64,000 nt of DNA, taken from NCBI GenBank assembly GCA_028817405.1, contig JAPPPS010000090.1, positions 22,570 through 86,569 on the forward strand, written 5' to 3'. The stretch comes from Gammaproteobacteria bacterium (GTDB lineage: Bacteria > Pseudomonadota > Gammaproteobacteria > Arenicellales > Poriferihabitantaceae). Under the pieces are notes generated by a model that was not told the DNA's origin, made no database searches, and saw only the letters and a program-made list of their open reading frames with translations. Positions 6,214 through 60,479 of this stretch are shown piece after piece; within the stretch, counting starts at the first letter, position 1, and each line of letters opens with the position of its first letter. Position numbers and translations under genes: made by a program.

Positions 6214-6352
6214 CCCAAAAATAAAATCGCGTTTGCCGTTACCGAGATTTTGCGGGGAATTGACGCCCCGGAAAAGGGTTGACGAAAACGGTTCCGCTCT
6301 GTTAATCTGTCACATCGTAATCCCACGACCACCTGACGGTCCAGAGGCAATA

Positions 6353-7705: not shown

Positions 7706-7756
7706 CTCGGTATTCTGCGCAATACCGGTTTAACCGTCTTCCGCCAAGTTTCGAAG

Positions 7757-8740: not shown

Positions 8741-8767
8741 CACCGGCATGACGCCGCGCGCATGTTG

Positions 8768-9259
8768 TTACGCCAAACTCTTGCGCATATAAACGCGGTG
8801 GTATCCGTGTTCGGTGCGGCGGGCGGTTTCGACATAGCCGGCGCGGCGGTAGAAGTCGATGCTCTCGGTCATCAGTTCGTGGCTGTATAACTCCAGATGC
8901 GCGCGGCCGAGCGCGCGCGTTTCGGATTCCGCCAAGCGCAGCAAGCGGCGACCGAGGCCGCGGCGTTGATGTTTGGGATGCACCGCGAGGTTGTCGAGCA
9001 GCACGCCGTTCGCCGTTTGCATCAACACCAACACGCCGGCCAACATGCCGCTCGAGTCGCGGTCCACTTCGGCGACAAACACATGGTGACGGCGCACCAC
9101 TTGCGCGTAGTCGTCGAGCATCGGGCCGGGCGGTTTGCCGATGCGTTGGATGTAATGCCGGTACGCGGCATCGACGCAACGCGCGATGCACTCGGCGTCA
9201 GCGGCGGTCGCCGGGCGCAGGTTAATGTTCGCGGCGCGCGTTTTATGTTTCGCTTCCAT
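8768..9259 (-). CDS. GNAT-family N-acetyltransferase
   Basis: Acetyl-CoA-binding motif LAVHPKHQRRGLGRRLL, with a size of 163 aa. Confidence 0.8.
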   Translation of the reverse strand: MEAKHKTRAANINLRPATAADAECIARCVDAAYRHYIQRIGKPPGPMLDDYAQVVRRHHVFVAEVDRDSSGMLAGVLVLMQTANGVLLDNLAVHPKHQRRGLGRRLLRLAESETRALGRAHLELYSHELMTESIDFYRRAGYVETARRTEHGYHRVYMRKSLA

Positions 9260-9274
9260 GCGCTACGGTTCGAT

Positions 9275-11215
9275 TCATTCGGCGCGGTGAGCGGCGGCCG
9301 CGCCGGCGTCTTGATTGGCATTCGTGGAATCCGCGGCATCCGCAACATCCGCAACATCCGGATGGTCCGCCGCTTCCTTTTGCAACTTCCACATCTGCGC
9401 GTATAAACCGTCGCGCGCCAACAATGCATCGTGCGCGCCTTGTTCGACGATGCGTCCTTGGTCGAGAACGATGATTTCATCCGCGCCGACGATGGTGGAC
9501 AATCTGTGCGCGATAACCACGGTGGTGCTGTTTTGCGCCACGCGTTCCAGCGCCAACTGAATGGCTTTTTCGGCGCGGCTGTCGAGCGATGAAGTGGCTT
9601 CGTCGAAGATAAGAATCGGCGCGCCCTTGAGCGCGGCGCGGGCGATGGCCACGCGCTGCTTCTCGCCGCCGGAAAGTTTCAAACCGCGCTCGCCGACTAA
9701 GATGTCGTAGCCTTGTGGATGTTGCGCGATGAACTCATCGAGGCGCGCGATGCGGGCCGCTTCGGCAATTTCTTCGCGCGCCGCTTGCGGACGGCCGTAG
9801 GCGATGTTGTAGCCGATGCTCGCGTTGAACAGCACCGTGTCCTGCGGCACCACGCCCATGGCGGCGCGCAAACTGGATAAGGTGACCGCGCGCAAGTCTT
9901 GGCCGTCGATGAGAATTCGCCCGGCGGCCGGGTCGTAGAAGCGCAGCAGCAGCCGCGACAGCGTTGACTTGCCGGCCCCGGACGGGCCGACCACCGCCAC
10001 CATGCGCCCGCCCGGCACCTGGAAGTCGATGTCGCGCAACGCCATGCGTACGGTGTTGTCATTGGCGTCGCCGATTTTGTAAGCAAACGACACTTTATCG
10101 AATCGAATCGCGCCGTTGTCGACGCGCAATGCTTTGGCGTTCGGCGACTCCACCACTTCGGGTTTGATGTCCAGCAAGCCGAACATGTCATGCATATCGA
10201 CCAGCGAATGATTGATGTCGCGGTAAATCGAGCCCATAAAATTTAGCGGGATATACAACTGAATCAAGAACGCGTTAATCATCACAAAGTCGCCGAGCGT
10301 GAGCGCGCCGCTCGCCACGCCTTGCGCCGCCAACCACAACAGCGCGGTCAAACCGCCGGCTACAATCGCCGCTTGGCCGATGTTGAGCCACGCCAAAGTG
10401 CTGTTGCTTTTCAGCGACGCGCGCACCCAACCCATGAGCGAGTCGCCGTAGCGCGTCGCTTCCATGTTCTCGTTGCCGAACAGTTTCACCGTCTCGTAGT
10501 TCAGCAGCGAATCCAACGCCAAGCCATGCGCTTCCGACTCGGCGCGGTTCATCTGCACGCGAAACTGCACTCGCCACCGCGTCATCTTCACGGTGAATAT
10601 GCTGTATAAAACGACAACGCCCACCGTAATCGCCGCAAACTGAATCTCAAACTGCACCAACAAAACCGTCACTACCGCAAGCAACTCAAACGCCACCGGA
10701 ATAATGTTGAACACGAACATGCGCAGGAAGCCGGAGACCGCGCCGGTGCCGCGTTCTAAACCGCGCGACAACACGCCGCTTTTGCGGTCGAGATGAAACC
10801 CGAGCGACAAGTCATGCAGATGGCGCAGCACCTCGGTCGAGATGCGGTGAATGATTTGCACGCTGGCGCGCGAGAACACCACATTGCGCAACTCGTTAAA
10901 CAACACCGACGCGAACCGCAGCGCGCCATAACCGACCACCAACGCCAGCGCCACGCCGACCGCAACGCCGGCGGAATCGGAAGCAAAACCGGAAACGGAA
11001 TCGGAGACCGAATTCGCGCCCGCGGACATCCCCTCCAACGCATCGACGATGAACTTCAACACAATCGGCACCGACACATTGGCGCTGCGCGCCAGCACCA
11101 ACAACGCCAACCCCGCGCCCACGCGCCAGCGATACTCCCACAGATACGGCAGCAACCGCTTGACCGTCGTCAAGTTGCCCCTCTTGTCATCTCGAATGTT
11201 GAAGCGAACCGCCAT
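9275..11215 (-). CDS. ABC transporter, fused permease/ATPase, ATM1/HMT1-type (ABCB) exporter
   Basis: A six-TM N-terminal domain is followed by Walker A GPSGAGKST, signature LSGGEKQR and Walker B LIFDEATSSLD. The C-terminal tail carries a short repeat (DVADVADAAD). Confidence 0.85.
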   Translation of the reverse strand: MAVRFNIRDDKRGNLTTVKRLLPYLWEYRWRVGAGLALLVLARSANVSVPIVLKFIVDALEGMSAGANSVSDSVSGFASDSAGVAVGVALALVVGYGALRFASVLFNELRNVVFSRASVQIIHRISTEVLRHLHDLSLGFHLDRKSGVLSRGLERGTGAVSGFLRMFVFNIIPVAFELLAVVTVLLVQFEIQFAAITVGVVVLYSIFTVKMTRWRVQFRVQMNRAESEAHGLALDSLLNYETVKLFGNENMEATRYGDSLMGWVRASLKSNSTLAWLNIGQAAIVAGGLTALLWLAAQGVASGALTLGDFVMINAFLIQLYIPLNFMGSIYRDINHSLVDMHDMFGLLDIKPEVVESPNAKALRVDNGAIRFDKVSFAYKIGDANDNTVRMALRDIDFQVPGGRMVAVVGPSGAGKSTLSRLLLRFYDPAAGRILIDGQDLRAVTLSSLRAAMGVVPQDTVLFNASIGYNIAYGRPQAAREEIAEAARIARLDEFIAQHPQGYDILVGERGLKLSGGEKQRVAIARAALKGAPILIFDEATSSLDSRAEKAIQLALERVAQNSTTVVIAHRLSTIVGADEIIVLDQGRIVEQGAHDALLARDGLYAQMWKLQKEAADHPDVADVADAADSTNANQDAGAAAAHRAE

Positions 11216-11336
11216 GTGTCGGATGGCTTGAGATGAATCGAGACGGTCGCGCCGCCGGCGATGCCGGCGATGGTGGTGCCGACGGTTTGCGGTCGCGATG
11301 TTTTTGCGACCCCGCGGTCGAGACGCGTTTGCGCCG

Positions 11337-12722
11337 CTAATGCCTCGACCCGAGGAAATTCAGGAGGTCGATGTCGGTGATGATGCCGAGCAGGTTGTCG
11401 CCGTCGTCGGGGTCGGTGACCAGCGGCACTTTGCCTTCGGTGACCAGTTTGGAGACGCGCTCGATGGAATCGCCGGCGGTGACATATTCGACCGAGGTGT
11501 CGACCAGGCTCTCGACCGGGTCATCGACGCCGGATTGCTGGGCGTAGAGCGATTTGAGAATCACGCTCTCGCGCACGATGCCCTTAATCCAGCCGTTCTC
11601 GTCCAGCACCGGCATCTGGCTGACCCCGGCTTCGCTGAGTTGGGCGATGACCGCGGAGATTTTGTCGCTTTGATTCGCCTTGATGAGGTCGCCGGGTTTT
11701 TTGTCGAGCGCGCGCAGCAAGTCGCCGACATTGCCGGTCTTCGATTCGAGGAATCCGACTTCGCGCATCCAGTCGTCGTCATACACTTTGGAACTGTACC
11801 GGTTGCCGCTGTCGGGGAAGATGATGAGAACATTCTTGCCGTCCATGCGCGCGCCCTGGCTGCGCACCCACTTCATCGCGCCGACAAACGCGCTGCCGGA
11901 TGACACCCCGGCGTAGATGCCTTCGCTGGTCAGCAACTCGCGCGTCTTCAAGAACGATTCTTTGTCGCCGACTTGCACCATGTCGTCGATTTGCTCGAAG
12001 TCGTAGTTGCCGGGGATGAAGTCCTCGCCGATGCCTTCGATGAGATAGCCTTCGGCCGGGGTTTTGTTCTCGCCGGTTTTGAAAGTTTCAAACACGATGG
12101 AGCCGACCGGGTCCACGGCCACGACCTCCACGCCCGGTTTGTTTTCCTTCAAGTATTTGCCGACGCCGGTGACGGTGCCGCCGGTGCCGATGCCGGCCAC
12201 GAACACATCGATGTCCGGCATCTGCGCGAGAATTTCCGGGCCGGTGTGCTGGTAGTGGTAGTCGCGGTTGGAGAGGTTGTTGTATTGGTCGATGTACAGC
12301 GAGTTGGGAATCTCCTGCGCCATGCGCCTTGACACCGAATAATAACTGCGCGGGTCGTCCGGCTCGACCGCGGTCGGCGTGACCACCACTTTGGCGCCGA
12401 ACGAGCGCAAGTTTTTGATTTTCTCCTGCGACATTTTGTCCGGCAGAATGAACACGCACTGGTAGCCCTTAATCGCCGCGGCCATCGCCAGGCCGACGCC
12501 GGTGTTGCCGCTGGTGCCTTCGATAATCGTGCCGCCGGGCTGCAGCGCGCCGCGCCGCTCGGCGTCCTCAATCATCCAGTAGCCGATGCGGTCCTTAATC
12601 GACCCGCCGGGATTGGTGAACTCCAGTTTGGCGTACAGATTGGCGCGCGCGCCACGCGCCACGCGGTTCAACCGCACCACCGGCGTATTGCCGATGGCTT
12701 CGATGATGGAATCGTAGAGCAT
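11337..12722 (-). CDS. Cystathionine beta-synthase (PLP domain plus tandem CBS domains)
   Basis: PLP-enzyme N-terminus (NTPVVRLNR...KLEFTNPGGSIKDRIG...GTSGNTGVGLA) with a C-terminal CBS pair (VSQMPVLDENGWIKGIV...VPLVTDPDDGDNLLGIITDIDLL). Confidence 0.85.
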   Translation of the reverse strand: MLYDSIIEAIGNTPVVRLNRVARGARANLYAKLEFTNPGGSIKDRIGYWMIEDAERRGALQPGGTIIEGTSGNTGVGLAMAAAIKGYQCVFILPDKMSQEKIKNLRSFGAKVVVTPTAVEPDDPRSYYSVSRRMAQEIPNSLYIDQYNNLSNRDYHYQHTGPEILAQMPDIDVFVAGIGTGGTVTGVGKYLKENKPGVEVVAVDPVGSIVFETFKTGENKTPAEGYLIEGIGEDFIPGNYDFEQIDDMVQVGDKESFLKTRELLTSEGIYAGVSSGSAFVGAMKWVRSQGARMDGKNVLIIFPDSGNRYSSKVYDDDWMREVGFLESKTGNVGDLLRALDKKPGDLIKANQSDKISAVIAQLSEAGVSQMPVLDENGWIKGIVRESVILKSLYAQQSGVDDPVESLVDTSVEYVTAGDSIERVSKLVTEGKVPLVTDPDDGDNLLGIITDIDLLNFLGSRH

Positions 12723-12909
12723 GATGTTTCCCCGTTGGTGTTGGCAAGGCTGGCGTTGGCAGCGCCGGCAAGACGGCGACCGCGCGCGGATGCGCGGATG
12801 AACGGTCGCCGAGCGGCGCGAATAAACGCGACTTTACACGATAGCCACGCGGATTCCATCATGCGCACGGTGGTTTGTGCGGCGGTGACGGCGGGGCTTT
12901 AATTCGCAA

Positions 12910-12975
12910 TTCCTGATGGTAGAGAAACAAGGAGCGAATGCGCCACTATTTCTCACCAATCAGGAAGCCAGAGTC
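12910..12975. repeat. Structured REP/MITE-like hairpin element, diverged third copy of the 31065/31666 hairpin
   Basis: TTCCTGA-TGGT-a-GAGAAA ... TTTCTC-ACCA-a-TCAGGAA followed by GCCAGAGTC. It has the same three-helix layout as the copies at 31065-31121 and 31666-31722, with compensatory changes. Confidence 0.7.
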
Positions 12976-13032
12976 CCCCGCTCGTGGGCGAGGGCAGGAT
13001 TTAATTGACCTGACGAGGAATCGACGGAAATG

Positions 13033-13063
13033 CTCTGGACTCCGGCTTTCGCCGGAGTGGCAG
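13033..13063. repeat. REP palindrome (CTCTGGACTCCGGC-N4-GCCGGAGTGGCAG)
   Basis: A perfect 7-bp stem CTCCGGC/GCCGGAG. The same unit recurs at 30980, 31213, 31360, 34842 and 52911. Confidence 0.85.
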
Positions 13064-13275
13064 AAATGACACCCGCAGCGCGCGCGGCCGGGTTTGCGCG
13101 GCGGGCGAACGCGGTTATACTTAACCATCGCAAACATCTGCCGCAACCATCGCCGTCCGCCGCAAACGCCACCGTCGCCGCGTCTGTCGGACCCACACGC
13201 CGCATCCTCCGCAAACACCGTCCGACACATCCACCGCATCCGCAACCGTTGCACCCGTAACCACCCGCCAACGCC

Positions 13276-14352
13276 ATGTTTTACCGCGAAGCCGGTAATT
13301 TTCATACCAACTACCGCGCTGACCAGCAGACTTTTCCGCTGGCGGTGGACCGGTGGACGGTGCGCGCGGTGGTGGCGTTCGCGTTTTTGGCGGTGCCGTT
13401 CATCATCAACGACTACTGGGAGAAGTCGGTGCTGGTGCCGTTTTTGGTGTGGTCGATGGCGGCGCTGGGTTTGAATATCTTAACCGGCTACTGTGGCCAG
13501 GTGAGCCTCGGCACCGGCGGTTTCATGGCGGTCGGCGCGTACGCCTGCTACAAACTCATGACCGCGTTCCCCGAACTCAACATGTTCGCGGTGGTGATTT
13601 TGTCCGGCGGGGTGACGGCCGCGGTCGGCATGGTGTTCGGCTTGCCGAGTTTAAAAATCAAGGGTTTTTATTTGGCGGTGGCGACGCTCGCGGCGCAGTT
13701 CTTTTTGGTGTGGCTGTTCAACAAAGTGCCGTGGTTTTACAACTACTCCGCGTCCGGGCAAATCTCGGCCCCGGCGCGCGAGATGTTCGGCGTGCCGGTC
13801 ACCGGGCCGGCCACGCCGCCGTGGGCCTCGTATTTGTTTTGCTTGACGCTGGTCGCGCTGTTTGCGGTGATTGCGCGCAACCTGACGCGCGGGCGCATCG
13901 GGCGTTCATGGATGGCGATTCGCGACATGGACATCGCCGCGGAAATCATCGGCGTGCCGCCGCTGTCGGCGAAGTTGTCGGCGTTCGCGGTCAGTTCGTT
14001 TTATATCGGCGTGGCCGGCGCGCTGTTCTTCGCGGTTTATCTCGGCGCCGCCGAGCCGACCGAAGCGTTCGGCATCGACAAATCGTTTCTGGTGCTGTTT
14101 ATGATTATCATCGGCGGCTTGGGCTCCATCTTCGGCTCGTTCATCGGCGCGGCGTTCTTGACCCTGCTGCCGGTGTTGATGAAGAATATCCTGGTCGGCG
14201 GCTTGGGCTGGCCGACTGATTTGGCGGCGCACCTCATCTTGATGATGGTCGGCGCGCTGATACTCCTGTTTCTCATCGCCGAACCGCACGGCCTGGCGCA
14301 GTTATGGCGCATCGCAAAAGAGAAACTGCGACTGTGGCCGTTCCCGCACTAA
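13276..14352 (+). CDS. livM: Branched-chain amino-acid-type ABC transporter permease (LivM-like)
   Basis: LNILTGYCGQVSLGTGGFMAVGAYACYKL and a multi-TM profile are typical of LivM. Confidence 0.85.
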   Translation: MFYREAGNFHTNYRADQQTFPLAVDRWTVRAVVAFAFLAVPFIINDYWEKSVLVPFLVWSMAALGLNILTGYCGQVSLGTGGFMAVGAYACYKLMTAFPELNMFAVVILSGGVTAAVGMVFGLPSLKIKGFYLAVATLAAQFFLVWLFNKVPWFYNYSASGQISAPAREMFGVPVTGPATPPWASYLFCLTLVALFAVIARNLTRGRIGRSWMAIRDMDIAAEIIGVPPLSAKLSAFAVSSFYIGVAGALFFAVYLGAAEPTEAFGIDKSFLVLFMIIIGGLGSIFGSFIGAAFLTLLPVLMKNILVGGLGWPTDLAAHLILMMVGALILLFLIAEPHGLAQLWRIAKEKLRLWPFPH

Positions 14353-14446
14353 AATGACGGCGGCCGCGGCGGCGATGCATCACGACGCATCAACCGCGCG
14401 CCGCTGAACTTCCACCTGCATTCCATCCGACATCGAGGAGGACAAC

Positions 14447-15742
14447 ATGAAACTCACTAAACCTGTCACCACCGTGCTGGCCGCGGTCGCCATGGCCGCC
14501 GGCGCCGGTACCGCCGCCGCGGACTTGGTCTTTCCGTCGCTCAGTTACCGCACCGGCGCGTACGCCGCCAACGGCATTCCGTATTTTGACGGTTACGCCG
14601 ATTACATGACGCTACTGAACGAGCGCGACGGCGGCATCGGCGGCGTGCGCGCGCGCGTCATCGAATGCGAGACCGCCTACAACACCGAAAAGGGCGTGGA
14701 GTGCTACGAGTCGACCAAAGGCGAAGGCGCGCTGGTGTATCAGCCGATGTCCACCGGCATCACCTACCAGTTGATTCCCAAGGCCACCGCCGACGACATT
14801 CCGATTCACTCCATGGGCTACGGCCGCACCTCGGCCGCCAACGGCCGCGTGTTCAGCCATGTGTTCAACTATCCGGGCACTTACTGGGACGCGGCGTCGA
14901 TTATCGTCAAGCACATCGACGACGAAGAAGGCGGCGACTTGCGCGGCAAAAACATCGCGCTGGTCTACCACAACTCGGCGTACGGCAAAGAGCCGATTCG
15001 CACGCTGCGCGAGTTGGCGGGCAAGCACGGTTACCGGCTGACCGAGATTCCGGTTGACCATCCGGGCCAGGAGCAGAAGTCGCAGTGGCTGCAAGTGCGG
15101 CGCGAGCGGCCGGACTATGTGATTATGTGGGGCTGGGGCGTGATGAACCAGGTGGCGATTAAGGAGGCCGCGAACATCCGCTTCCCCATGGACAAGTTCA
15201 TCGGCGTGTGGTGGTCCGGCTCGGAGAACGATGTGCTGCCGGTCGGCGCCGGCGCGCACGGCTACAAAGCGGTGTCGTTCCATGGCGTCGGCGAGGACTA
15301 TCCGATTTACCGCGACATCAAACGCTATGTCATCGACCGCGGCAAAGCCTCCGGCGACGGCAACCAACTCGGCACGGTGCTGTACAACCGCGGCATGTAC
15401 GCGGCGCTGTTGGCCGCCGAAGCGGCGCGCACCGCGCAACGCATGCACGGTGTCGCCGACATCACCTCGGGGCAGATGCGCGACGGCATGGAAGCGCTGA
15501 AGATGACGCGCGCGCGCATGACCGAACTCGGCGTGCCGAACTTCGGGCCGGAAATCAACGTCTCCTGCGCCAACCACGGTAACCCGGGCCTGGGCGCGAT
15601 TCAACAGTGGGACGCGAACGCCAAAGCATGGTCGCTGATTACCGACTTCACCGAAGCCGACCGCGCGGTGGTCGACCCCCTCATCGCCGAAGACTCCGCC
15701 GCCTACGCCGCGGAAAACAACATCACACCGCGGGATTGCTGA
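14447..15742 (+). CDS. Liv-type ABC transporter periplasmic substrate-binding protein
   Basis: Signal peptide MKLTKPVTTVLAAVAMAAGAGTAAA. The protein is 431 aa of type-I periplasmic binding-protein character and sits between livM and livF. Confidence 0.85.
   Translation: MKLTKPVTTVLAAVAMAAGAGTAAADLVFPSLSYRTGAYAANGIPYFDGYADYMTLLNERDGGIGGVRARVIECETAYNTEKGVECYESTKGEGALVYQPMSTGITYQLIPKATADDIPIHSMGYGRTSAANGRVFSHVFNYPGTYWDAASIIVKHIDDEEGGDLRGKNIALVYHNSAYGKEPIRTLRELAGKHGYRLTEIPVDHPGQEQKSQWLQVRRERPDYVIMWGWGVMNQVAIKEAANIRFPMDKFIGVWWSGSENDVLPVGAGAHGYKAVSFHGVGEDYPIYRDIKRYVIDRGKASGDGNQLGTVLYNRGMYAALLAAEAARTAQRMHGVADITSGQMRDGMEALKMTRARMTELGVPNFGPEINVSCANHGNPGLGAIQQWDANAKAWSLITDFTEADRAVVDPLIAEDSAAYAAENNITPRDC
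15703..15732. repeat. Left copy of a 30-nt direct repeat (att-like), covering the last codons of the SBP gene
   Basis: CTACGCCGCGGAAAACAACATCACACCGCG matches 21952-21981 at 29 of 30 positions. Confidence 0.85.
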
Positions 15743-15850
15743 GTATGTTCCGTGGGCGGTCGCCGGCAACGGCGGCCGCTCGCGGAATTACGGAGACGGA
15801 CGGTGTGTAAAACCGAAATCGAGCGCCGCGCATCAGGGCGGCTTTAGGTC

Positions 15851-17671
15851 GTGGCGGAGTCGACGACAAAGCCGCGTTATGTGCGGGTTAAATCGCGCGC
15901 CTTAAAGGGTGAAGACACCGTCTTGCGGCTGGCCGGTGGCAAGACCCGGAATTGTCGTCGATTCATTCCGGTGACGAAAGGCGACCGCATTCGTTTTGAC
16001 GGCAAAAAGACATGGGTCAAATTGCCCAACAAGCGGGGTGAAGTCCAAATCGAACCGGGGTGGCGGTCGTGGGGGTATCTTTGCCTCAACGGCAAGCGCA
16101 TTCGGGTAACGTTCAAAGAAATTATAACGCAAGCCGAACTGGATGCCTATCACATGCTCACAAGGTTTCATTACCGAGGCAACGGTGGCGCATGCCGACG
16201 TGTGCCGCTGATTGCCAAAGTGAATGTTTGGAACCTGCCGAAGGTGGTCGGGTTTGTCGAACTCTCGTCAAGTTTGCTCGTCAACGCCGAGCGCAAACGA
16301 AACGTTCTTGACCACCCTTATCAAGACACCACTCATCATGGTGTTGGTTGGAAAATGTGGGACTGGAAAAGCGCAAAAAAATACACCAACGCCATCGTGC
16401 GTATTTCGCGCTGCGTGGTGTACCCCGAATTGCGCGGGGCGGGGCTGTCGCCCATGCTCGCGGATGCGGCGGTTAACTATGCCCGAGAGCGCTGGCACAT
16501 CGGCGGCTTGCGGCCGTGTTTCATTGAAATCATCGCCGAGATGTTGCGCTATTGGCCGTTCGTGGAAAAAACCGGCTTTGTCAAAGTCGGCGAAACCGAA
16601 GGCAACCTGAAGCGCGCGCGCACCGCCATGGAGTATTTGTTGCGGCGCAAAGAAAACGGACGCGGCTACCCGAAAGGCGGCGGCGGCATTATGTCCATGC
16701 ATCGCATGCACGCTGAACAACTCGCCGAGATTCAACAAACCCGTGGCGTTTCGGTGGCCGAAATTCTCCGTTTGCTGGAGCAATCCCCGGACAAACTCGA
16801 CGCCCGCGACTGGGTTTCGTTGCACGACATACTGCGGCGCAAAAAACCCACTTACATGCTCGGCTTAACGCCGTCCGCGAGCGAACATTTGCAAAAATGT
16901 CTCGGTGCATCCGCTTCCGGTCGCCCGGATTCTCATGCGCCCGGTCACCGTTGCGAAACGCATGGCGAAATCGCCGGCATGAAAATTTCCGCGACCGCCA
17001 TGCCGCAAAATTCCGCGCGGTGTCGCCGCGTCCAAGAAGCCTTCGGCATCGTCAGCACCGAATTTAATTCGGTCATCGCGGACCGGCTGGATGTCAAATT
17101 CGAACCGGGCAAAATCGTCTTGGTGAGCGGCTCGAGCGGCGTCGGCAAATCGGCGTTTTTGCGCGCAGTGCGCCATCTGCTTACGGGCAACACCAAGTTG
17201 CCCGACGGCATGCGCGTTGAGTCCGACAACGCGGTTAAGGCGAAGCGCGTCGCGCAACTGCAAAAACCGCCGCGCAACAAAGCGCCGATTGATTTGTTGA
17301 GTCGTTACGACCTTGACGATTCAATGCGCATCCTGGCCCAAGCCGGGCTGGCCGAAGCGCATTTGTTTGTGCGCCCGTCGTTCACGCTCAGCGTGGGGCA
17401 ATCTTACCGTCTCGCGCTGGCGTTGGCGTTGGCAAAAAAGCCGGATGTGCTTTTGATTGACGAATTCTGCGAGCCGCTCGATGAATACACGAGCGCGGTG
17501 ATTTGCCGTAAAATCCGCAAAGCCGCCACGAAAGACGGCATTAGCGTGGTTGTGGCGACCGCCGATGCGCGCAAGGTGTTGCAGGAGTTGCAACCCGACC
17601 GCGTATTGTTGCTGTTGTCCAGCGGCCGGCACGAGTGGCGCGACGGCAAGAAAATCGATTTAGCGCGATGA
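15851..17671 (+). CDS. GNAT-like acetyltransferase domain fused to a C-terminal ABC-type ATPase domain (island gene 1)
   Basis: The GNAT-like core lies around aa 95-250 (ISRCVVYPELRGAGLSPMLADAAVNYA). The C-terminal ABC module has Walker A GSSGVGKS, signature LSVGQSYR and Walker B LLIDEFCEPLD. GTG start; low G+C. Confidence 0.7.
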   Translation: MAESTTKPRYVRVKSRALKGEDTVLRLAGGKTRNCRRFIPVTKGDRIRFDGKKTWVKLPNKRGEVQIEPGWRSWGYLCLNGKRIRVTFKEIITQAELDAYHMLTRFHYRGNGGACRRVPLIAKVNVWNLPKVVGFVELSSSLLVNAERKRNVLDHPYQDTTHHGVGWKMWDWKSAKKYTNAIVRISRCVVYPELRGAGLSPMLADAAVNYARERWHIGGLRPCFIEIIAEMLRYWPFVEKTGFVKVGETEGNLKRARTAMEYLLRRKENGRGYPKGGGGIMSMHRMHAEQLAEIQQTRGVSVAEILRLLEQSPDKLDARDWVSLHDILRRKKPTYMLGLTPSASEHLQKCLGASASGRPDSHAPGHRCETHGEIAGMKISATAMPQNSARCRRVQEAFGIVSTEFNSVIADRLDVKFEPGKIVLVSGSSGVGKSAFLRAVRHLLTGNTKLPDGMRVESDNAVKAKRVAQLQKPPRNKAPIDLLSRYDLDDSMRILAQAGLAEAHLFVRPSFTLSVGQSYRLALALALAKKPDVLLIDEFCEPLDEYTSAVICRKIRKAATKDGISVVVATADARKVLQELQPDRVLLLLSSGRHEWRDGKKIDLAR

Positions 17672-19014
17672 AATCGACCAAGAAAATTTTCACCAAAGCG
17701 CGGTTCAGCACCGACGCAACCTCGACCAACCTCAACTTTGACCAAGGCGCGCGGGCGGTGACCATCGGGCGGGACCGCGGCATCCGCCACGGCTATGTCG
17801 GCCGCGTTTGCGAGTCATCAAAAGGCAAGAGCATTTTTGACGCCTCGGTGTGGATGAACACCAGTTTCCCCAGCGTCATCGGGGTGTTTGGCATGCGCGG
17901 CACCGGCAAGAGTTTTAACTTGGGCGTTTTTACCGAATGCCTGGCCGGCGACCGGCAAGTATGCACGGGCAATGACAAGTCGCCGGCGGTGGTGATTTTT
18001 GATGTGCAGAATCAATTTTGGACGTCGGCGATGCAACCGACCGCCGAGCATGACTCCGCCCAACTGAAAATGCTCGCCCAATGGCATCTCAAACCAAGCG
18101 TGGTGCCGAATGTATGTTGCTGGACGCCGACCGGCAAAAAGTCGCCGCTTCCGGGCGCGCGGGAATACCAAATTCACCCCGACCAACTCGACAATTCCGA
18201 TTGGCTTGCACTGTTGGAGCAAGAACGGTATTCGCCGATGGGGCAGGCGTTAATCGAGTTGTTGCGCAAGGCGAAAGATTGCGTTCCGCGCGCCTTGGCG
18301 AAAACGCTTCACAATGCCGGCGCGTTGCCGTCGGCTCACCCGACTACGGTCGATGGGTTGCGCTGGCGTTTGGAGTCACTCGCCGAGTCCGACTTAATCG
18401 GCGCGCCGGGCGTGGACATCAAAGAACTGTTGGTGCCGGGCCGGGTGTCGGTCATGCTGTTGCGTGATTTGCCGGAGTCGTTGCGCGCACTGACCGCGGC
18501 CACGGTCGTGCGCCAACTCGCGGCGCGGATGACGCAGTTTCATCAAACGCGCCGCCTCGCCGAACGCGGCAAGGGCGCTGCGCCAAAGGTCGACCTCCCG
18601 CATCATTTATGGTGCATAATGGACGAAGCGCATGTGATTGCGCCGCGCGAAGGCAAAACGCCCGCAAACGCGCCGCTGGTGGACTATGTCAAACGCGGCC
18701 GCGATTCCGGGCTATCGTTGATTTTCGCCACGCAACAACCGTCCGCGGTCGACAACAAACTGATGAGCCAAGTTGACATCACATTCACCCATGCGCTCGG
18801 TTTTGAAACCGACGTGCAGGCCGCCATCGACCGCATGCCCACACGCAAGCCAGCCGTTTACCGTTGTGGCGGCGAAAAACTGTCAACTCCCGGCGACTTG
18901 ATTCGCTCGCTGAAACCGGGCGAAGCGATCATCGCCGATTCCGCAAGCCAACGACCGTTCATCGCGCAAATGCGCCCGCGGCTGTCGTTGCATGGCGGGG
19001 ATACGCCGACCTGA
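17668..19014 (+). CDS. HerA/FtsK-superfamily (DUF87-like) ATPase (island gene 2)
   Basis: ATGA overlap with gene 1. Walker A GMRGTGKS, Walker B LWCIMDEAHVIAP, and GRDSGLSLIFATQQPSAVDNKLMSQVDITFTHAL typical of HerA-like translocases. The N-terminus resembles a HAS barrel (HGYVGRV). Confidence 0.75.
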   Translation: MKSTKKIFTKARFSTDATSTNLNFDQGARAVTIGRDRGIRHGYVGRVCESSKGKSIFDASVWMNTSFPSVIGVFGMRGTGKSFNLGVFTECLAGDRQVCTGNDKSPAVVIFDVQNQFWTSAMQPTAEHDSAQLKMLAQWHLKPSVVPNVCCWTPTGKKSPLPGAREYQIHPDQLDNSDWLALLEQERYSPMGQALIELLRKAKDCVPRALAKTLHNAGALPSAHPTTVDGLRWRLESLAESDLIGAPGVDIKELLVPGRVSVMLLRDLPESLRALTAATVVRQLAARMTQFHQTRRLAERGKGAAPKVDLPHHLWCIMDEAHVIAPREGKTPANAPLVDYVKRGRDSGLSLIFATQQPSAVDNKLMSQVDITFTHALGFETDVQAAIDRMPTRKPAVYRCGGEKLSTPGDLIRSLKPGEAIIADSASQRPFIAQMRPRLSLHGGDTPT

Positions 19015-19017
19015 CCC

Positions 19018-20259
19018 GTGGCTTACGATCCGCACACGTGCTACCGCGAGTTAGGGCGCGCATTGTCGCGCTACAATGGATACACGAATTACCCAAAATT
19101 GGAACGCATCGCGGACATCATCGCCGGCGATGATGAGGGTGATTTATTCGCAGGCAAGCCATACCGTTATGCGCATGAAGTGATTGAAAAATTCATGAGT
19201 AGAGGCAAAAAAGACAAGCAGCGCAGTGCGGAAGTGTATTTACAACACGCGATTGCGTTTGGTTTCCTTTATCGCGCCGTTCCGGGCAGTGCTCGTTTGC
19301 GCGCGCAATCCAAGAAGCGCGTGGAATCGAATTCACACATTGCTTTGTCGTCCTTGGGGCGCGCCTATCGTTCTGCCGCCGCTTTGCCGGTTGAGGAAGG
19401 CGTTGCTTTCCGACGGTGGCTTTGGGAATACGTCCTGCTCGATGCGGATTTCGACATGTATGGATTGCTGTTGAAACTGAGTTTGGCGAATAACGCGAAA
19501 TTCATCGAGCGCAAACCGTTCGAGGATGCATACAAAAGTATGGAAGCCAAAAGGAATGAGTGGTTAAAAGACCGCATTCCCTCGCCGGCGGTGCGCGAAC
19601 GCGTGGAAAAATACATTCAGTGGAAAATTCCTGAACGCAGTCGACGAACATCAAATTCATCCGACTCCAATATCGATGCTTCGGTGCGGGTGTTGAGTTC
19701 CACCACCTACGGGTATCACCACAGTCAGCGCAAAGGCTGGGCGTGTGGGAGCATCTTGCAACACGCGAATGGCGCCGGCAACCTGACGGAAGCGGGGGAG
19801 CATTTCGCGCGTTTGTTGCCATCGCTGGATGCACAACCTCTGTTTTGGATTGGCCCACATTTTGAGTGCACAAACTCTCTTTTTCTTAAGGCCGCCGGCA
19901 TCCCCCGCGAACAGTGTTCACCGGTGTGGGATTGGCTGACGCATGCTTCGCGCGACGGCAATGAAAACCGAAACGAATATGACACAGCGTTCGTGGATGC
20001 TGTTGCGAAACACATGGAAAGCGGTTATCCGTATCTCAGGCTTGCCACATTCGACCAAGCCGCTTTGGATACGGCCGTGCCGTATATCCATTTTCTGGCG
20101 CACCGGCGCAAAATTGACTTGAACGGCGATGCAGTGCATGGCATATTCGCCGATGTGTTTAAGACGCATCGCGCCACTTTCGTTTGCACCCTGGGGCGCA
20201 ACTATTCAAAAACCCATTTTTGGCTTCGCACGCACTCCAATGGTGAATCAAAAAAATAA
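19018..20259 (+). CDS. Hypothetical protein, no recognisable domain (island gene 3)
   Basis: A 413-aa ORF starting at GTG 19018, 3 nt after the gene 2 stop. Its composition matches the island genes and I recognised no motif. Confidence 0.55.
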   Translation: MAYDPHTCYRELGRALSRYNGYTNYPKLERIADIIAGDDEGDLFAGKPYRYAHEVIEKFMSRGKKDKQRSAEVYLQHAIAFGFLYRAVPGSARLRAQSKKRVESNSHIALSSLGRAYRSAAALPVEEGVAFRRWLWEYVLLDADFDMYGLLLKLSLANNAKFIERKPFEDAYKSMEAKRNEWLKDRIPSPAVRERVEKYIQWKIPERSRRTSNSSDSNIDASVRVLSSTTYGYHHSQRKGWACGSILQHANGAGNLTEAGEHFARLLPSLDAQPLFWIGPHFECTNSLFLKAAGIPREQCSPVWDWLTHASRDGNENRNEYDTAFVDAVAKHMESGYPYLRLATFDQAALDTAVPYIHFLAHRRKIDLNGDAVHGIFADVFKTHRATFVCTLGRNYSKTHFWLRTHSNGESKK

Positions 20260-54244: not shown

Positions 54245-54586
54245 ATGGAAACGCTTCTCAACTTCTTCATCGCGCCGGCCTGGGCGCAAGACGGCGGCGG
54301 CGGCGGGCTGTTCACGCTGCTGCCGATGGTGCTGATTTTCGTCATCTTCTATTTACTGTTGATTCGCCCGCAGCAGAAGCGCGCCAAGCAGCACAAAACC
54401 ATGGTCGCCGGTTTGTCGAAAGGCGACGAAGTCGTCACCAACGGCGGCGCGCTCGGCAAAATCACCGGCGTCGACGACAACTTCGTCACCGTCGAAATCG
54501 CCGACGGCGTGCGCATCAAAGTCCAGCGCATGTCCATCGCGCAGATGATGCCGAAAGGCACGGTGAAGCCGGACAAATCGTCGTAG
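54245..54586 (+). CDS. yajC: Preprotein translocase subunit YajC
   Basis: LLPMVLIFVIFYLLLIRPQQKRAKQHKTMVAGLSKGDEVVTNGGALGKITGVDDNFVTVEIADGVRIKVQR. Confidence 0.92.
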   Translation: METLLNFFIAPAWAQDGGGGGLFTLLPMVLIFVIFYLLLIRPQQKRAKQHKTMVAGLSKGDEVVTNGGALGKITGVDDNFVTVEIADGVRIKVQRMSIAQMMPKGTVKPDKSS

Positions 54587-54590
54587 GCGG

Positions 54591-57500
54591 ATGACCATTC
54601 TCGATAACCACAGTCGGGTAAGCAGCGTTGGCGCACATTTGCGCGGGCTGCTCGGTGACGGTGCGCATACTTTGCGCATCGTCTCCGCCTACTTCACAAT
54701 ACATGCATATGAGGGGTTAATGCGCGAATTAGAAAATGTCGACACGGTGCGATTTTTGTACGGTGACCCCGGGTCTGTTGGGGAAGTCGACCCGGGCGAG
54801 AAGAAAAACAAAGGATTTGATTTAAGTGAACAAGGCTTATTGCCGCAACAATTGCTTCGACAAAAGCGTTTGGCAAAAGATTGCGAAAAATGGATAAAAG
54901 AACGAGTCAAAATTCGCACCATCAAGCAAGTAAATTTTTTGCACGGCAAAATGTATCACATCGAACGGTCCGCTTATCCGGATGCGGCGGTAATCGGGAG
55001 TTCAAACTTCACGCGCCGCGGACTGGGTTTTGACGACAGTGCAAATTTGGAACTCAACTTGTCCGTTGACGATGCTTCGACTTGTGATTCGTTGAAGCAG
55101 TGGTTTGATGCCATTTGGAGCAACAAGCATCTTAGTAGAGACGCCAAGGATGAGGTGCTGGCCGCGCTTCGTCGAATCGGCGAAAACCGCTCTCCGGAAC
55201 TTGTTTATTTCAAGACCTTGATGGAAATTTTTCGCGACCGAATAGAAGCGCGCGAACAAACAAGAGAGTGGCTTGGGGTGACGGACCTCAGAGATACACA
55301 GGTATGGCGAACGCTGTTTCCATTTCAGCGCGACGGTGTGATTGGAATCATCAATCGCTTGGAGCAACACAACGGATGCATTCTTGCCGATAGTGTCGGG
55401 CTTGGTAAAACCTACACGGCGTTGGCGGTCATTCGTTACTATGAAGCGAAAAATCAGCGGGTGTTGGTGCTCTGCCCAAAGAAACTCAGCGAAAACTGGA
55501 AACTCTACCCGACGCAATTCGGACAGCAAGGCAACCCTTTCAAGGAAGATAATTTCCATTATACCGTGTTGCATCACACCGACCTGTCACGACAATCAGG
55601 TCAATCAAACGGCATTGATTTGGCCGGATTTGATTGGAGCGGCTACGGTTTGGTGGTGATAGACGAATCTCACAACTTTCGCAACGAATCCAGCAGTACA
55701 CGCGACGAAAACGGTGTGATTATTCGCCACAGTCTTTATGAACGGTTGTTGCAGGATGTGATTCAACAGAGCGGCAAAACCAGCGTGTTGATGCTGTCAG
55801 CGACTCCAGTCAATACTTCGTTGGATGACCTGCGCAATCAAATCTATTTTATGACCGGGAAACGGGAAGATGCCTTCAAAGAAACCCTCGGCATAACGAG
55901 TGTTCGTTCCATGCTTGGTCGCGCGCAAAAACAGTTCAAGGAATGGGAGCGGCGAGGCGGGAACAAAGACAAACAAAAATTGTTCGATGCCCTGGGGGGC
56001 GACTTTTTTGCGCTGTTAGACGCCGTTTCCATCGCCAGGTCGCGCCGCCATGTAAAGATATTTTACCCGGAAGTCGTCAAGGAAATCGGCGGCTTTCCAA
56101 CGCAGACCAAACCCGAAAACGAATCCCCGCCAACGGATGCTCTGGGGAAACTCTCCTACGAAGAACTGAATCACGAGATTCAGAAATTTCGACTTTCGAT
56201 TTACACTCCGGCGAAATATGTCATCGGAGAACAGGCGCGACACGATCTGGAAGAGGAGAAAAAGAAATTCAACTTCAACCAAGTTGACCGTGAACGTTGG
56301 TTGATTGGCATGATCCGCGTAAATTTCCTCAAGCGCTTGGAAAGCGCCGCGCCGTCTTTGGAAAAAACATTAGGCCGGACCATTCAAAAAATTGAGGAGC
56401 AAGTGGATAAAATAGGGAGATATAAGTCGAAAATCGACGATGAAGGCGACGCCAACGCATCTTTGGAAGATGATTGGGATGACGAGGATTTTGTCGCCAG
56501 CAAGGCTCGACACACCTTTCACTTTAAAGATTTGGATCTGTCGAAGTGGGCGGATGATTTACGCAAAGATATGGATGTGCTGGAGGTGGTGCGCGTGAAA
56601 GTTGGCGCCATTACCCCGCAACGAGATAAAAAATTGGCCACGCTGAAACATAGAATTTTCGACAAACTGGCCAACCCGACCACTAACAAGGACGGACGCA
56701 AGAATCGCAAAATTCTGGTGTTCACTGCGTTTAAGGACACGGCCGTTTACTTGTACGATTATCTGATGCCCCTGATTCAGGATGCGTTTAATGTCGAGTG
56801 CGCGATGGTTGCCGGAGACGAGACAAAAACCACTTATGGCAACAACAATTTTAATGATATTTTGACCAACTTTGCCCCCATCGGACGCGGTCGATTTAAT
56901 CGTGATGAAGTTGGGCAGCCCATCCCAGATGAAAAGCCGGAGATAGATGTTCTTATCGCTACGGATTGCATCTCGGAGGGGCAGAATCTGCAAGACTGCG
57001 ACCGGGTGGTTAATTATGACATTCACTGGAATCCGGTTCGTTTGGTTCAACGTTTTGGCCGGATCGACCGCATCGGGAGTCGCAACTCAGCGGTGGGCAT
57101 GATTAATTTCTGGCCGACGAAGGAACTTAACTACTACCTGGACCTGAAAAACCGCGTAGAAGCACGGCTGGCTTTGATGGACGCTACCGCTACAGGAGAT
57201 GAACCCGCCGTTACCGAGAATGAGATGCGCGAGAGCGCCGAAACGGAGATGGGTTTTCGAGATGCACAAATTCGTCGATTGCATGAAAGTGCATTTGGTC
57301 TCGATGATCTGGACGACAGTGTAACCATGAGCGATTTTTCGTTGGACGATTTTATCGCGCAATTAATGAATTATTTGGAGAGAAACCGTGCAGAATTAGA
57401 ATGCGTTCCCTTGGGAGTATTCGCGGTTGCTGATTGCGCGAAAATGCAACCGAGCGTTCTTTCCAATATCGCTTCTCCGGGAGTGATTTTTTGTCTGCGA

Positions 57501-57920
57501 CAGAAAAATTCTCCACAAGGGAAAAGTGTACGCAATCCCTTGAAAGAATATTATTTGGTGTATGTTCGCGATGATGGCGAGGTGCGGTACAATTATACGC
57601 ATGCCAAACAAATTCTGGAAATTTTCGGAGAATTGGCGCAAAAACAGGATGCCCCGTTATTGCCATTGTGCGATATTTTCGATATCGAAACACAGAATGG
57701 GCGTGACATGGGCAAATATGATACCCTGTTAGACAGGGTCATCACCGCCATTAGTCGGAAATTTGACCGACAAGTTGCCGGCACTCTGGCTTACCGAAAT
57801 GCCGTTGTGCCGACAAAGGCCGAGCAACCTCAGACCGCGGAAAATTTTGAGCTCGTAACCTGGTTAGTCATCAAAGATGGCGAAAAATTGCCCGCGGACT
57901 CCGAACACAAATTATCCTGA
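54591..57920 (+). CDS. PLD-superfamily nuclease domain fused to an SNF2-family helicase (1109 aa)
   Basis: The N-terminal HKD-like motif is LHGKMYHIE...[13 protein letters not shown]. SNF2 motifs are [11 protein letters not shown] (I), [11 protein letters not shown] (II), [15 protein letters not shown] (III) and [44 protein letters not shown] (V-VI). G+C is low. The gene starts 4 nt after the yajC stop. Confidence 0.85.
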   Translation: [1109 protein letters not shown]

Positions 57921-57932
57921 TGGTATAGCGCA

Positions 57933-59435
57933 ATGAACGATAATGGCATCTGGGTGGCGCTGAAAGATTTTGAGTGCACGCCCTTGCGTGATGGGGCAAC
58001 CAAGTTGCTGAGCAAGTTTGGGTTGACCAGCGACCGCGTGATGGGGGCGGATAGCGGGTCATTGGATGATTTTCTGAACGAGTTTAATGTCAATCAAAAA
58101 TTGACCGACTTGGAGCGCAAAAATATTCGTCGACTTGTGCGAAAAATTGTCTTCCTTTTTCAAGTTACGCAAGACGAAATTTCCTTGTTACCGTCGAGCG
58201 GAGAGGATGGTGGCTTGCTCGCAAATTCCATCATTTTTATCGTTGCCGATGTAACTTGCTCACCTCATTTAACTCAAGATGAGTTACAGGGTATTATTAG
58301 GCCATTGCGCAAGGGATTTTCAGCCCCAGTGGTCGGTTTGTTCCGATATGGCGGGCGGGTGGCATTCACGGCGGTGGCGCATAGGCAGCATCAAATTCGA
58401 CCGGAAATAGATGTGCTTTTCGGCGCTGGCGTGACCGAAAACGTAAACCTCTCCAACCCAGACTGGCGACACAAGGATTTTTTGCTGAAATGGCAAAGAA
58501 TCATAGCGTCCGGCTCTGCGGCAACCTTCGGTGATGTGGCGCAACATCTCATTAATGTTCCAAACAAATATCGCGCAGACAAACTGTGTCAAAATAGCGA
58601 TTCTCCCGATATTTTCCGTATGTATATCTGGGATGTTAGTCGCTGGCCGCTTCTTACCAAAGCGGATGAAAAAGAATTGGCCCGGCGAATGGATCATGAT
58701 GCGGATGCAAAAGAACGGTTCTACTGTTCAAATTTAAGACTGGTCATCTGGCAAGCCAAAAGATATGCCGATGTTTCTAACATCGATATCCTGGATTTGA
58801 TTCAGGAAGGCAATATCGGCTTGATGAAAGCAGTCAACAAGTTTGAGTATTGGCGCGGCAATAAATTCTCGACCTACGCGACCTGGTGGATCCGCCAAGC
58901 GATTACGCGGTATATTGCCGACCATGGCAGACTCATTCGGGTTCCCGTCCATGCATTCGAAGATATTCGACGCTTGGATCGCGTATGCTATACAATTTTT
59001 AGAAGAACGGGGCGGGATGCAACGCCTGATGAAATATCGGAAAAGTTGCAATGGTCCAAGGAAAAAGTGACCAGAGTTCTGAATATTGTCGAAGATCCGG
59101 TTTCCATGGAAGCGTCGACCGGGGACGACGTGGATATTAGTCGCTTGAAAGGTTCTATCGAAGACGAGAATATTGTTTCGCTGGTCGATGTCGTCACCAG
59201 TTCATGTCTCAAACAAGCAATTCGGACGCTTCTGAACTCGCTCACCAAGCGCGAGGCCGAGGTGTTGCGGATGCGTTTCGGCATCGGCATGAGTACCGGC
59301 CACACTCTGGAAGAAATTGGCAATCGCTTCGGTGTCACACGCGAACGCATACGCCAAATTGAGTCCAAGACTCTCAAGAAACTGCGTCGGTCGAGCCGCT
59401 CCAGACCCCTGCGCGTTTTTCTCGAAACCCCTTGA
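57933..59435 (+). CDS. Sigma-70-family (RpoD/RpoS-like, regions 1.2-4) factor with a novel ~220-aa N-terminal domain
   Basis: Region 2 reads [53 protein letters not shown]. Region 4 reads [49 protein letters not shown]. Region 1.2 starts near aa 225 ([17 protein letters not shown]). I did not recognise aa 1-220. Confidence 0.85.
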
Positions 59436-59537
59436 CGAACGAGAGAATTAATATCAATATCTGCGTATATGGCGAGAGAATTGGTGAATGCACTTTATCG
59501 CCCATCACGCAAGCAACTCAATCATCCGGAGTTCATC

Positions 59538-60479
59538 ATGGCCATCACAAGCGTTTATTTCGGCGACGAGTTGGGGCGGTACGGTTTCGGCGACGGGCAT
59601 CCGTTCGGGCCGGACCGTTTGCATGCGTTCTGGGCCGAGACGGTCCGCCAAGGGCTGGACAAGAAAGTCGACATCATGGCGCCGGTGGCATGCGATGAAT
59701 CGGAGTTGCTGCGTTTTCATACGCCGGAATATGTCGGCCTGGTCAAACGCGCTTCCGAGACCGGCGCCGGTTATCTCGACGCCGGCGACACCCCGGCGTT
59801 CAAGGGCGTGTTCGAGGCCGGCTGCTATGTGGTCGGCTCGGACTTGGACGCGCTACAACGCATCGTCTCCGGCGAGACGCCGCGGGTGTTCATCCCCATC
59901 GCCGGCTTGCACCACGCGCGCCGCGACGGCGCGGCCGGCTTCTGCGCCTTCAACGACTGCGGCGTCATCATCGAAACACTGCGCCGCGAATACGGCATCC
60001 AGCGCGTGGCGTATGTCGACATCGACGCGCATCACGGCGACGGCGTGTTCTACGCTTTCGAGGACGACCCGGATGTGGGCTTCGCCGACTTGCACGAGGA
60101 CGGCCGGTTTTTATATCCCGGCACCGGCTTCGCCTCCGAGACCGGCAAGGGCGCGGCCGCCGGCGGCAAGTTAAACATCCCGCTCGACCCCGGCAGCGAC
60201 GACGATGCGTTCCACCGCGCGTGGCCGCGCGTCGAAGAATACTTGCGCGCGTTCAAACCGGAAATCATTCTGCTGCAGGCCGGCGCCGACAGCATCGCCG
60301 GCGACCCAATCACCCACATGCGGTTCTCGCCGGCCGCGCACGGCCACGCGGCCGCGGGCCTGGCGCGCATCGCCGACGAATTCTGCGACGGCCGCCTCAT
60401 CGCCATGGGCGGCGGCGGATACAACCGCAACAACCTGGCGCTGGGCTGGAACGAAGTGCTGAAAGCGTTGTCGGTTTAG
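59538..60479 (+). CDS. Histone deacetylase-family protein (AcuC / acetylpolyamine amidohydrolase-like)
   Basis: GDGHPFGPDRL...AGLHHARRDGAAGFCAFND...VDIDAHHGDGV... are the canonical HDAC catalytic motifs. ATG at 59538. Confidence 0.85.
   Translation: MAITSVYFGDELGRYGFGDGHPFGPDRLHAFWAETVRQGLDKKVDIMAPVACDESELLRFHTPEYVGLVKRASETGAGYLDAGDTPAFKGVFEAGCYVVGSDLDALQRIVSGETPRVFIPIAGLHHARRDGAAGFCAFNDCGVIIETLRREYGIQRVAYVDIDAHHGDGVFYAFEDDPDVGFADLHEDGRFLYPGTGFASETGKGAAAGGKLNIPLDPGSDDDAFHRAWPRVEEYLRAFKPEIILLQAGADSIAGDPITHMRFSPAAHGHAAAGLARIADEFCDGRLIAMGGGGYNRNNLALGWNEVLKALSV

Follow-up and report, generated by a model that had tools for sequence, protein, structure and literature searches.

A host-type primary sigma factor carrying the N-terminal domain of PLD-SNF2-linked methylases: a candidate docking adaptor in a restriction-type gene island

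HKD(PLD)-SNF2 proteins paired with Eco57I-family methylases are a known restriction-like couple, which PADLOC labels 'C3a139 HKD+Snf2' with 'REase_MTase_IIG'; in MmeI-type relatives of these methylases the N-terminal part is a nuclease. Our literature search found no experimental study of this HKD-SNF2/Eco57I pair, and no published function for the methylase N-terminus, for DUF4391 or for the sigma fusion described below. A precedent for a SNF2 motor acting on RNA polymerase is RapA (HepA), a SNF2 ATPase that binds the bacterial enzyme. Here we analyse a stretch of 64,000 nucleotides (nt) from a gammaproteobacterium (assembly GCA_028817405.1, contig JAPPPS010000090.1, positions 22,570 to 86,569), hereafter the window. 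In it, a gene for a PLD-SNF2 protein is followed by an open reading frame (ORF) whose product joins a domain homologous to the N-termini of such methylases (the N-domain) to an RpoD-like sigma-70 module. The underlying restriction-like system is already known, albeit uncharacterised; what is new is that a sigma factor serves as partner, that it occurs together with the methylase in a single operon and that it appears to have two origins.

When amino acids (aa) 1-231 of the fusion protein were searched alone, Pfam, NCBIfam and PADLOC all gave no match at a cut-off as loose as E<=10, and the N-domain profile had no match among PDB sequences. A phmmer search with aa 1-225 against 1.84 billion representative proteins returned 166 matches at E<=1e-3, eleven of them below 1e-30, and the domain is conserved in ten close homologues with a common architecture. 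Ninety of the 166 matches were sampled for architecture: 68 were homologues of Eco57I/N6_Mtase/TaqI_C methylases, mostly 1000-1350 aa long and matched at residues ~10-200, while 10 were sigma fusions (query included) and the remainder were short fragments or short proteins, together with one beta-class N6_N4 methylase fusion. The E values for the methylase N-termini ranged from 1e-13 to 1e-4. In profile comparison by hhalign, the profile of the window's clade (alignment A2) matched that of 23 methylase-type N-domains (A4) with 99.8% probability and an E value of 2e-30 over 179 columns. Judged by sequence comparison, the N-domain and the N-terminal part of Eco57I-type N6 methyltransferases are homologous. 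The initial annotation had pointed to such a resemblance for aa 1-220, and both the profile match and the 68 methylases in the sample bear it out.

The core common to the sigma and methylase types reads ...LFQ.T..E...S..F.A..L...Y.R..L..I.R..N..F..PV..LF..G....A...RR/HR.H......DVL............P...H..IL. The motif on which this suggestion was based is indeed present, in the second half of this core, with 12 residues from DVL to NP instead of the supposed 6-10. The domain end first placed at position 58600 (~aa 222) was slightly generous, since the shared domain stops near aa 205. As had been noted, the N-terminal part shows no features of sigma region 1.1: aa 1-225 lack this region and the Pfam sigma regions begin at aa 226. 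Nor is the N-domain a common sigma accessory domain, as only ~1% of 401 genomes of the phylum carry it. The beta-class fusion among the sampled matches (P0047, 551 aa), in which the N-domain is joined to an N6_N4 methylase (PF01555), presents a third kind of partner.

Several methylase-type members gave sub-threshold matches to DUF4391; sub-threshold or precomputed matches to PF14335, the Pfam model of this family, are limited to some methylase-type and cyanobacterial relatives. Applied to aa 1-231 of the window protein, the same model (gathering score 29.9 bits) found nothing at E<=10. Genuine DUF4391 proteins were then gathered from genomes and aligned for profile comparison, and the methylase-type profile matched them with 92% probability and an E value of 6.6e-7 (hhalign). 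Because the methylase-type profile matches DUF4391 and that of the window's clade alone does not, the placement rests on transitivity via the methylase-type domains, and the window's N-domain can be regarded as a putative divergent member of the DUF4391 superfamily.

A metagenome scan with the methylase-type alignment A5 (the broader alignment A4 was too diverse for this use) yielded 80 loci. In 71 of them a PLD-SNF2 homologue, typically with E ~1e-290, is located directly upstream on the same strand, and the other nine have at most 1.35 kb of upstream sequence. The earlier suggestion that these methyltransferases are encoded next to PLD-SNF2 helicases is thus borne out, with upstream genes homologous to that of the window. 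Similarly, a PLD-SNF2 gene precedes free-standing DUF4391 genes in 12 of 15 loci, the other three ending at contig ends, and it stands directly upstream of the sigma fusion in all 13 loci examined. The N-domain therefore keeps this neighbour whether it stands free or is joined to a methylase or a sigma factor. Its fusion partners are interchangeable and include a gamma-class Eco57I methylase, a beta-class N6_N4 methylase and sigma. Our main argument is this: because the domain travels with PLD-SNF2 whatever it is fused to, we infer that it probably serves as a docking adaptor which couples its carrier to the PLD-SNF2 motor nuclease. In one locus (L062), the gap between the PLD-SNF2 and methylase genes holds a free-standing N-domain copy. 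Such gaps are an insertion hot spot (L014-L017, L035, L037, L055, L071), where ORF6N/KilA-N-like, AlbA_2/Schlafen-like and DUF1016 (YhcG)-like genes were observed; genes of these three kinds are known guests of type I restriction operons.

The PLD-SNF2 protein of the window contains the Pfam domains PLDc_2, SNF2-rel_dom and Helicase_C, and matches PADLOC model PDLC01075 ('C3a139 HKD+Snf2') with an E value of 5e-110. The motifs HGKMYH...GSSN (aa 118), GLGKT (aa 270) and DESH (aa 358) are intact in the window and in all sigma-linked relatives. Both the motor and the nuclease of this partner are probably active. The protein scores 133.9 bits against the DISARM DrmD model, whose equivalog cut-off is 610, and homologues of DrmA or DrmB were not seen in the loci examined.

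The sigma module comprises Sigma70_r1_2 (PF00140, aa 226-253, 29.2 bits), r2 (PF04542, 266-333, 66.5 bits), r3 (PF04539, 343-417, 50.7 bits) and r4 (PF04545, 433-485, 70.7 bits), all above their gathering cut-offs. Regions 1.2, 2, 3 and 4 thus all exceed the Pfam thresholds by which group 1/2 sigma-70 factors are recognised; region 1.1 and the non-conserved region are absent. The best NCBIfam match is the proteobacterial RpoD model PRK05658 (E 6.6e-109), covering its C-terminal 240 positions only, and the RpoD equivalog NF004208 gives 365.6 bits against a cut-off of 555, with model positions 391-630 only. In pairwise alignment the module shares 57% identity with the RpoD encoded in the same genome. 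Its -10 recognition motif (regions 2.3-2.4) is identical to that of the host RpoD, the H and E of region 3.0 and the core-binding stretch of regions 2.1-2.2 are kept, and region 4.2 preserves the host's TRERIRQIE and K-L-KLR pattern with two substitutions. From established sigma-70 biology, a module with these motifs is predicted to bind the core RNA polymerase and to recognise promoters of the housekeeping kind. The match of the promoter-contact motifs to those of the host RpoD makes a private regulon improbable; a decoy, or a coupling to RNA polymerase, would be the better fit. Among the relatives, P0004 and P0005 have near-identical N-domains and differ sharply from region 2.4 on (alignment A1, columns ~330-500), where P0004 resembles host-type RpoD (e.g. 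...DALPDELAILMGIPEESVREILNIAKEPISM...). This difference could be due to gene conversion with the resident rpoD or to a chimera of metagenome assembly.

A search with the N-domain of P0100 revealed ~50 cyanobacterial proteins (Microcoleus, Oscillatoriales) of 930-2450 aa, which NCBI labels merely as sigma-70 family factors. In these proteins the N-domain is followed by sigma regions 1.2-4 and by an extended C-terminal tail that contains AAA_22. In the two cyanobacterial loci examined (L112 and L113), the fusion gene overlaps the PLD-SNF2 stop codon (ATGA) and no methylase lies nearby. The tail in L112 (11603-17359) is 1919 aa long and has no NCBIfam match, a faint AAA_22 being the only Pfam signal. 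While the window's sigma is of the proteobacterial RpoD type, the cyanobacterial sigma parts match best the cyanobacterial RpoD model PRK07406 (E 2e-143 and 5e-158), and the window's sigma shares 38-40% identity with the cyanobacterial fusions versus 57% with its own RpoD. When a tree of N-domains was rooted on DUF4391, the sigma clade of Cyanobacteria (100% support in the Shimodaira-Hasegawa approximate likelihood ratio test, SH-aLRT) was nested among methylase N-domains, inside a 65-row clade (97% SH-aLRT) from which the window's clade, a separate long branch, is excluded. Two independent origins of the sigma fusion in two phyla are the simplest reading of these comparisons, with a caveat about a long branch that is taken up below.

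In the mechanism we propose, the N-domain would dock its carrier protein onto the PLD-SNF2 motor nuclease. The carrier would be a sequence-reading methylase in the common system; in the window, the adaptor would replace region 1.1 on a copy of the host-type primary sigma, and the nuclease motor would be tethered to this sigma and, by way of it, to RNA polymerase or to promoter DNA. We consider it reasonably probable that carriers dock onto PLD-SNF2 and that the motor is here connected by a host-type sigma with RNA polymerase or with promoter DNA. A restriction-type defence module seems to have captured a copy of the main transcription-initiation factor; the link to defence is one that we infer. 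A bolder and tentative extension is that the HKD-SNF2/DUF4391 platform captured the host's own primary sigma twice and independently, wiring an immune module to transcription either as a decoy or as an RNA-polymerase-guided loader. As an integrated decoy, the sigma copy would be bound by sigma-hijacking or anti-sigma proteins of a phage, and the tethered nuclease motor would be unleashed; a P-loop NTPase (the AAA_16 gene or the fused AAA_22) would act as the switch, as in immune receptors of the nucleotide-binding leucine-rich repeat (NLR) type. As a loader, sigma would put the nuclease motor on the promoters of incoming DNA. If sigma was captured in this manner, its host-like character in each phylum would follow because the resident RNA polymerase has to be mimicked or engaged. 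Three features speak for a role in engaging or mimicking RNA polymerase: the predicted housekeeping specificity, the resemblance of sigma to that of the host in either phylum, and the repeated association with a P-loop NTPase. The latter is encoded by a separate AAA_16 gene in the sponge-associated clade to which the window belongs and is fused as AAA_22 in the cyanobacterial clade; homology of these two ATPase associations was considered and dropped, as phmmer found no similarity between the sponge-clade AAA_16 and a 2453-aa cyanobacterial fusion.

Four points weigh against the docking proposal. The window lacks both the methylase and the AAA_16 gene, and its copy could be a decaying remnant. 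A nuclease motor tethered to a housekeeping-type sigma offers no obvious distinction between self and non-self. The branch that leads to the sponge-clade N-domain is long (2.1 substitutions per site), which leaves the exact placement of this domain in the tree unsure. Finally, the shallow profile of the window's own clade does not reach significance against DUF4391 members (E 0.067).

The sigma fusion might otherwise be a sequestered regulator, which PLD-SNF2 holds inactive in the manner of an anti-sigma factor until engagement of foreign DNA frees it for a transcriptional response. The module keeps all the regions needed to form a holoenzyme, a sigma-70 family protein in a defence system has a precedent in NCBIfam (MzaA), and translational coupling, with a 12-nt spacer in the window and the ATGA overlap in L112 and L113, would suit a stoichiometric complex. 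Yet the identical region 2.4 motif and the region 4.2 motif, conserved but for two substitutions, point to housekeeping promoters instead of a private set, and in the two-gene loci the pair is not accompanied by any conserved target gene. We regard a sequestered regulator as unlikely. The same evidence bears on the initial idea that a transcription output has replaced a DNA-modification output: a sigma module is present, while its housekeeping-RpoD contact motifs argue against a dedicated regulon.

The closest relatives come from sponge-associated metagenome-assembled genomes, e.g. Candidatus Spongiihabitans and Poriferihabitaceae. In the fullest operons (L004-L006), PLD-SNF2 and the N-domain-sigma fusion are followed by a 413-aa AAA_16/nSTAND6-like ATPase and an N-domain-Eco57I methylase of ~1300 aa. 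L001 and L007 also contain the full four-gene set, with the methylase split into two ORFs (L001, 11672-11866 and 12010-15495, the 64-aa ORF carrying the start of the N-domain; L007, 12783-16756), which points to frameshifted or decaying methylases in certain lineages. L002, L008 and L115 possess PLD-SNF2, sigma and AAA_16, the downstream flank of L115 being short. PLD-SNF2 and sigma alone are found in L003 and the window, and likewise in L116 with its short downstream flank. The initial annotation had also proposed that the methylase module was swapped for sigma. This agrees with the window, L003 and the two cyanobacterial loci, all without a methylase, but not with L004-L006, where both coexist. 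The window pair (54591-59435) is a reduced form of the four-gene operon in a low-GC island of defence type. In several relatives, L005 (16600-18577) and L004 (18389-20395) among them, the operon is followed by a pair of TcmP (three-Cys-motif partner) and DUF5131 genes (PADLOC PDC-M30/PDC-M41), probably a separate defence module in the same island.

Could the pair in the window be a functionless relic, left after the four-gene operon lost its methylase and ATPase? Its genome (93% complete) contains no other N-domain and no orthologous methylase, and AAA_16 is matched there only by a distant paralogue (28% identity), encoded on a different contig. The element is moreover sporadic in the genus: the N-domain occurs in 2 of 11 other genomes, once in the sigma type and once in the methylase type, a patchiness that would fit decay. 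However, both ORFs are full-length, the HxK...GSxN, Walker A and DESH motifs and the sigma regions are intact, and L003 has the two-gene form as well, as do the two cyanobacterial loci, in which no other form was seen. Taken together, we consider a decaying remnant improbable. A second, weaker PLD-SNF2-like stretch (36% identity, open frame of 526 aa) is present in the same genome outside the window (contig C80, 12323-16523), with an Eco57I-like methylase stretch (open frame of 579 aa) ~3 kb downstream; it may be a fragmented related system without the N-domain.

The structure of the N-domain was predicted by AlphaFold2. An earlier model from 9 sequences had a mean predicted local distance difference test score (pLDDT) of 64 and gave no significant Foldseek matches, while an alignment of 54 sequences produced a confident model (pLDDT 82.6, predicted template modelling score 0.82). 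The latter consists of four N-terminal helices followed by an alpha/beta core with strands 69-79, 95-107, 133-139, 142-152 and 160-167 and helices 115-126 and 178-192; the alternating beta/alpha character read earlier from the sequence is recovered in this core, behind a helical N-terminal part. The confident model had no significant Foldseek neighbour in the PDB (best E 0.025, template modelling (TM) score <= 0.24) or in BFVD (best E 0.015). F47, Q77, F102, R151 and L184 are invariant across the family, and E82, P132, D160, P176 and H180 are among the nearly invariant residues; as far as sequence can tell, these conserved residues present no recognisable nuclease signature or triad and do not look catalytic. 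That the N-domain is a nucleic-acid-binding or PD-(D/E)xK-type nuclease-like module and not a protein-protein adaptor, as the weak top Foldseek matches (Holliday-junction resolvases, SPARDA DREN and Cas4, with Hjc again for the confident model) and the N-terminal nuclease of the MmeI-type relatives might suggest, is very improbable, since no match was significant even with the confident model (E >= 0.015, TM <= 0.27 on the query), the family-wide invariant residues form no nuclease triad, and residue 106, always D in the sigma clade, varies among E, D, K and A in the N-domains of methylases. The PD-(D/E)xK idea was dropped accordingly, the resolvase matches never having reached significance and the candidate acidic residue D106 not being conserved in the methylase-type domains.

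Coordinates of the features are collected in Table 1. The two adjoining ORFs occupy a low-GC stretch on the + strand (GC 0.48-0.53 versus ~0.67 in the flanks, as seen in the GC profile). The stop codon of yajC lies 4 nt ahead of the PLD-SNF2 start, and 12 nt separate the PLD-SNF2 and sigma-fusion genes. In the window a high-GC gene of the deacetylase family (59469-60479) comes after the sigma gene, and secDF does not follow. L002 and the window share synteny (acyl-CoA dehydrogenase, AMP-ligase, HAD, yajC); the island of L002, with PLD-SNF2, the sigma fusion, AAA_16 and a 1061-aa autotransporter, is placed between yajC and secD-secF (6231-20202).

Table 1. Features of the sigma-fusion locus (positions in the window)
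Feature	Position	Strand	Remark	Basis
yajC	54245..54586	+	native gene, upstream edge of the low-GC insertion	ORF list, GC profile
HKD(PLD)-SNF2 motor-nuclease gene	54591..57920	+	1109 aa	Pfam, PADLOC, intact motifs
Sigma-fusion ORF	57933..59435	+	500 aa, intact	
N-domain of the sigma fusion	57933..58547	+	aa 1-205 (domain proper ~4-205)	phmmer, hhalign, AlphaFold2
Linker between N-domain and sigma region 1.2	58548..58607	+	aa 206-225	low pLDDT beyond aa ~210; outside the stretch shared with methylases
RpoD-like sigma-70 module	58608..59435	+	aa 226-500 and stop codon; regions 1.2, 2, 3, 4	Pfam, NCBIfam

Under the docking-adaptor reading, DUF4391 acquires a role that can be tested, and so do the N-termini, as yet unannotated, of thousands of predicted 'type IIG' methylases. 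Such a domain would be a plug, portable between proteins, that fits a single family of PLD-SNF2 motor nucleases and accepts a gamma-class methylase, a beta-class methylase or a sigma factor. If this is true, a restriction-type motor can couple to the core transcription apparatus, an unexplored means by which bacteria could detect or attack invaders. That the fusion seems to have arisen separately in Proteobacteria and in Cyanobacteria speaks for selection and against an accident. Meanwhile, the current label 'sigma-70 family RNA polymerase sigma factor' masks the defence-island context.

Compared with known systems, the locus is closest to the HKD-SNF2-linked methylases of the Eco57I family (PF07669), in which a domain homologous over ~180 residues is likewise N-terminal and encoded right after the PLD-SNF2 gene. 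The core motif P-V-x-L-F-x-G-...-RR/HR-x-H-...-DVL-...-P-x-x-x-H occurs in both. The C-terminal partner is, however, a sigma-70 module here and a methylase with a target-recognition domain there; identity between the N-domains is only 20-30%, and PHRAH of the methylases is NPDWRH in the sigma fusion. Free-standing DUF4391 proteins (~230-270 aa) are also encoded right after a PLD-SNF2 gene, but DUF4391 proper ends in a coiled-coil tail at the C-terminus, which the window's domain lacks. The PLD-SNF2 protein matches RapA weakly (E 1.7e-13, 49.7 bits versus a cut-off of 576), which amounts to generic SNF2 similarity, and RapA itself has neither a PLD domain nor a sigma-borne adaptor. RpoD and other group 1-2 sigma factors share regions 1.2-4.2 with the window's module, which differs from them in its foreign N-domain and its low-GC island setting. 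MzaA of the anti-phage system MZA (mzaABCDE) likewise places sigma-70 regions 2-4 after a long non-sigma N-terminal region in a defence-type operon. Its models (NF041931/PDLC02203) match the sigma part of the window protein only (model positions 475-716, 317.8 bits versus a cut-off of 800) and do not match the N-domain alone, and the partner genes of MzaA differ from the PLD-SNF2 setting described here.

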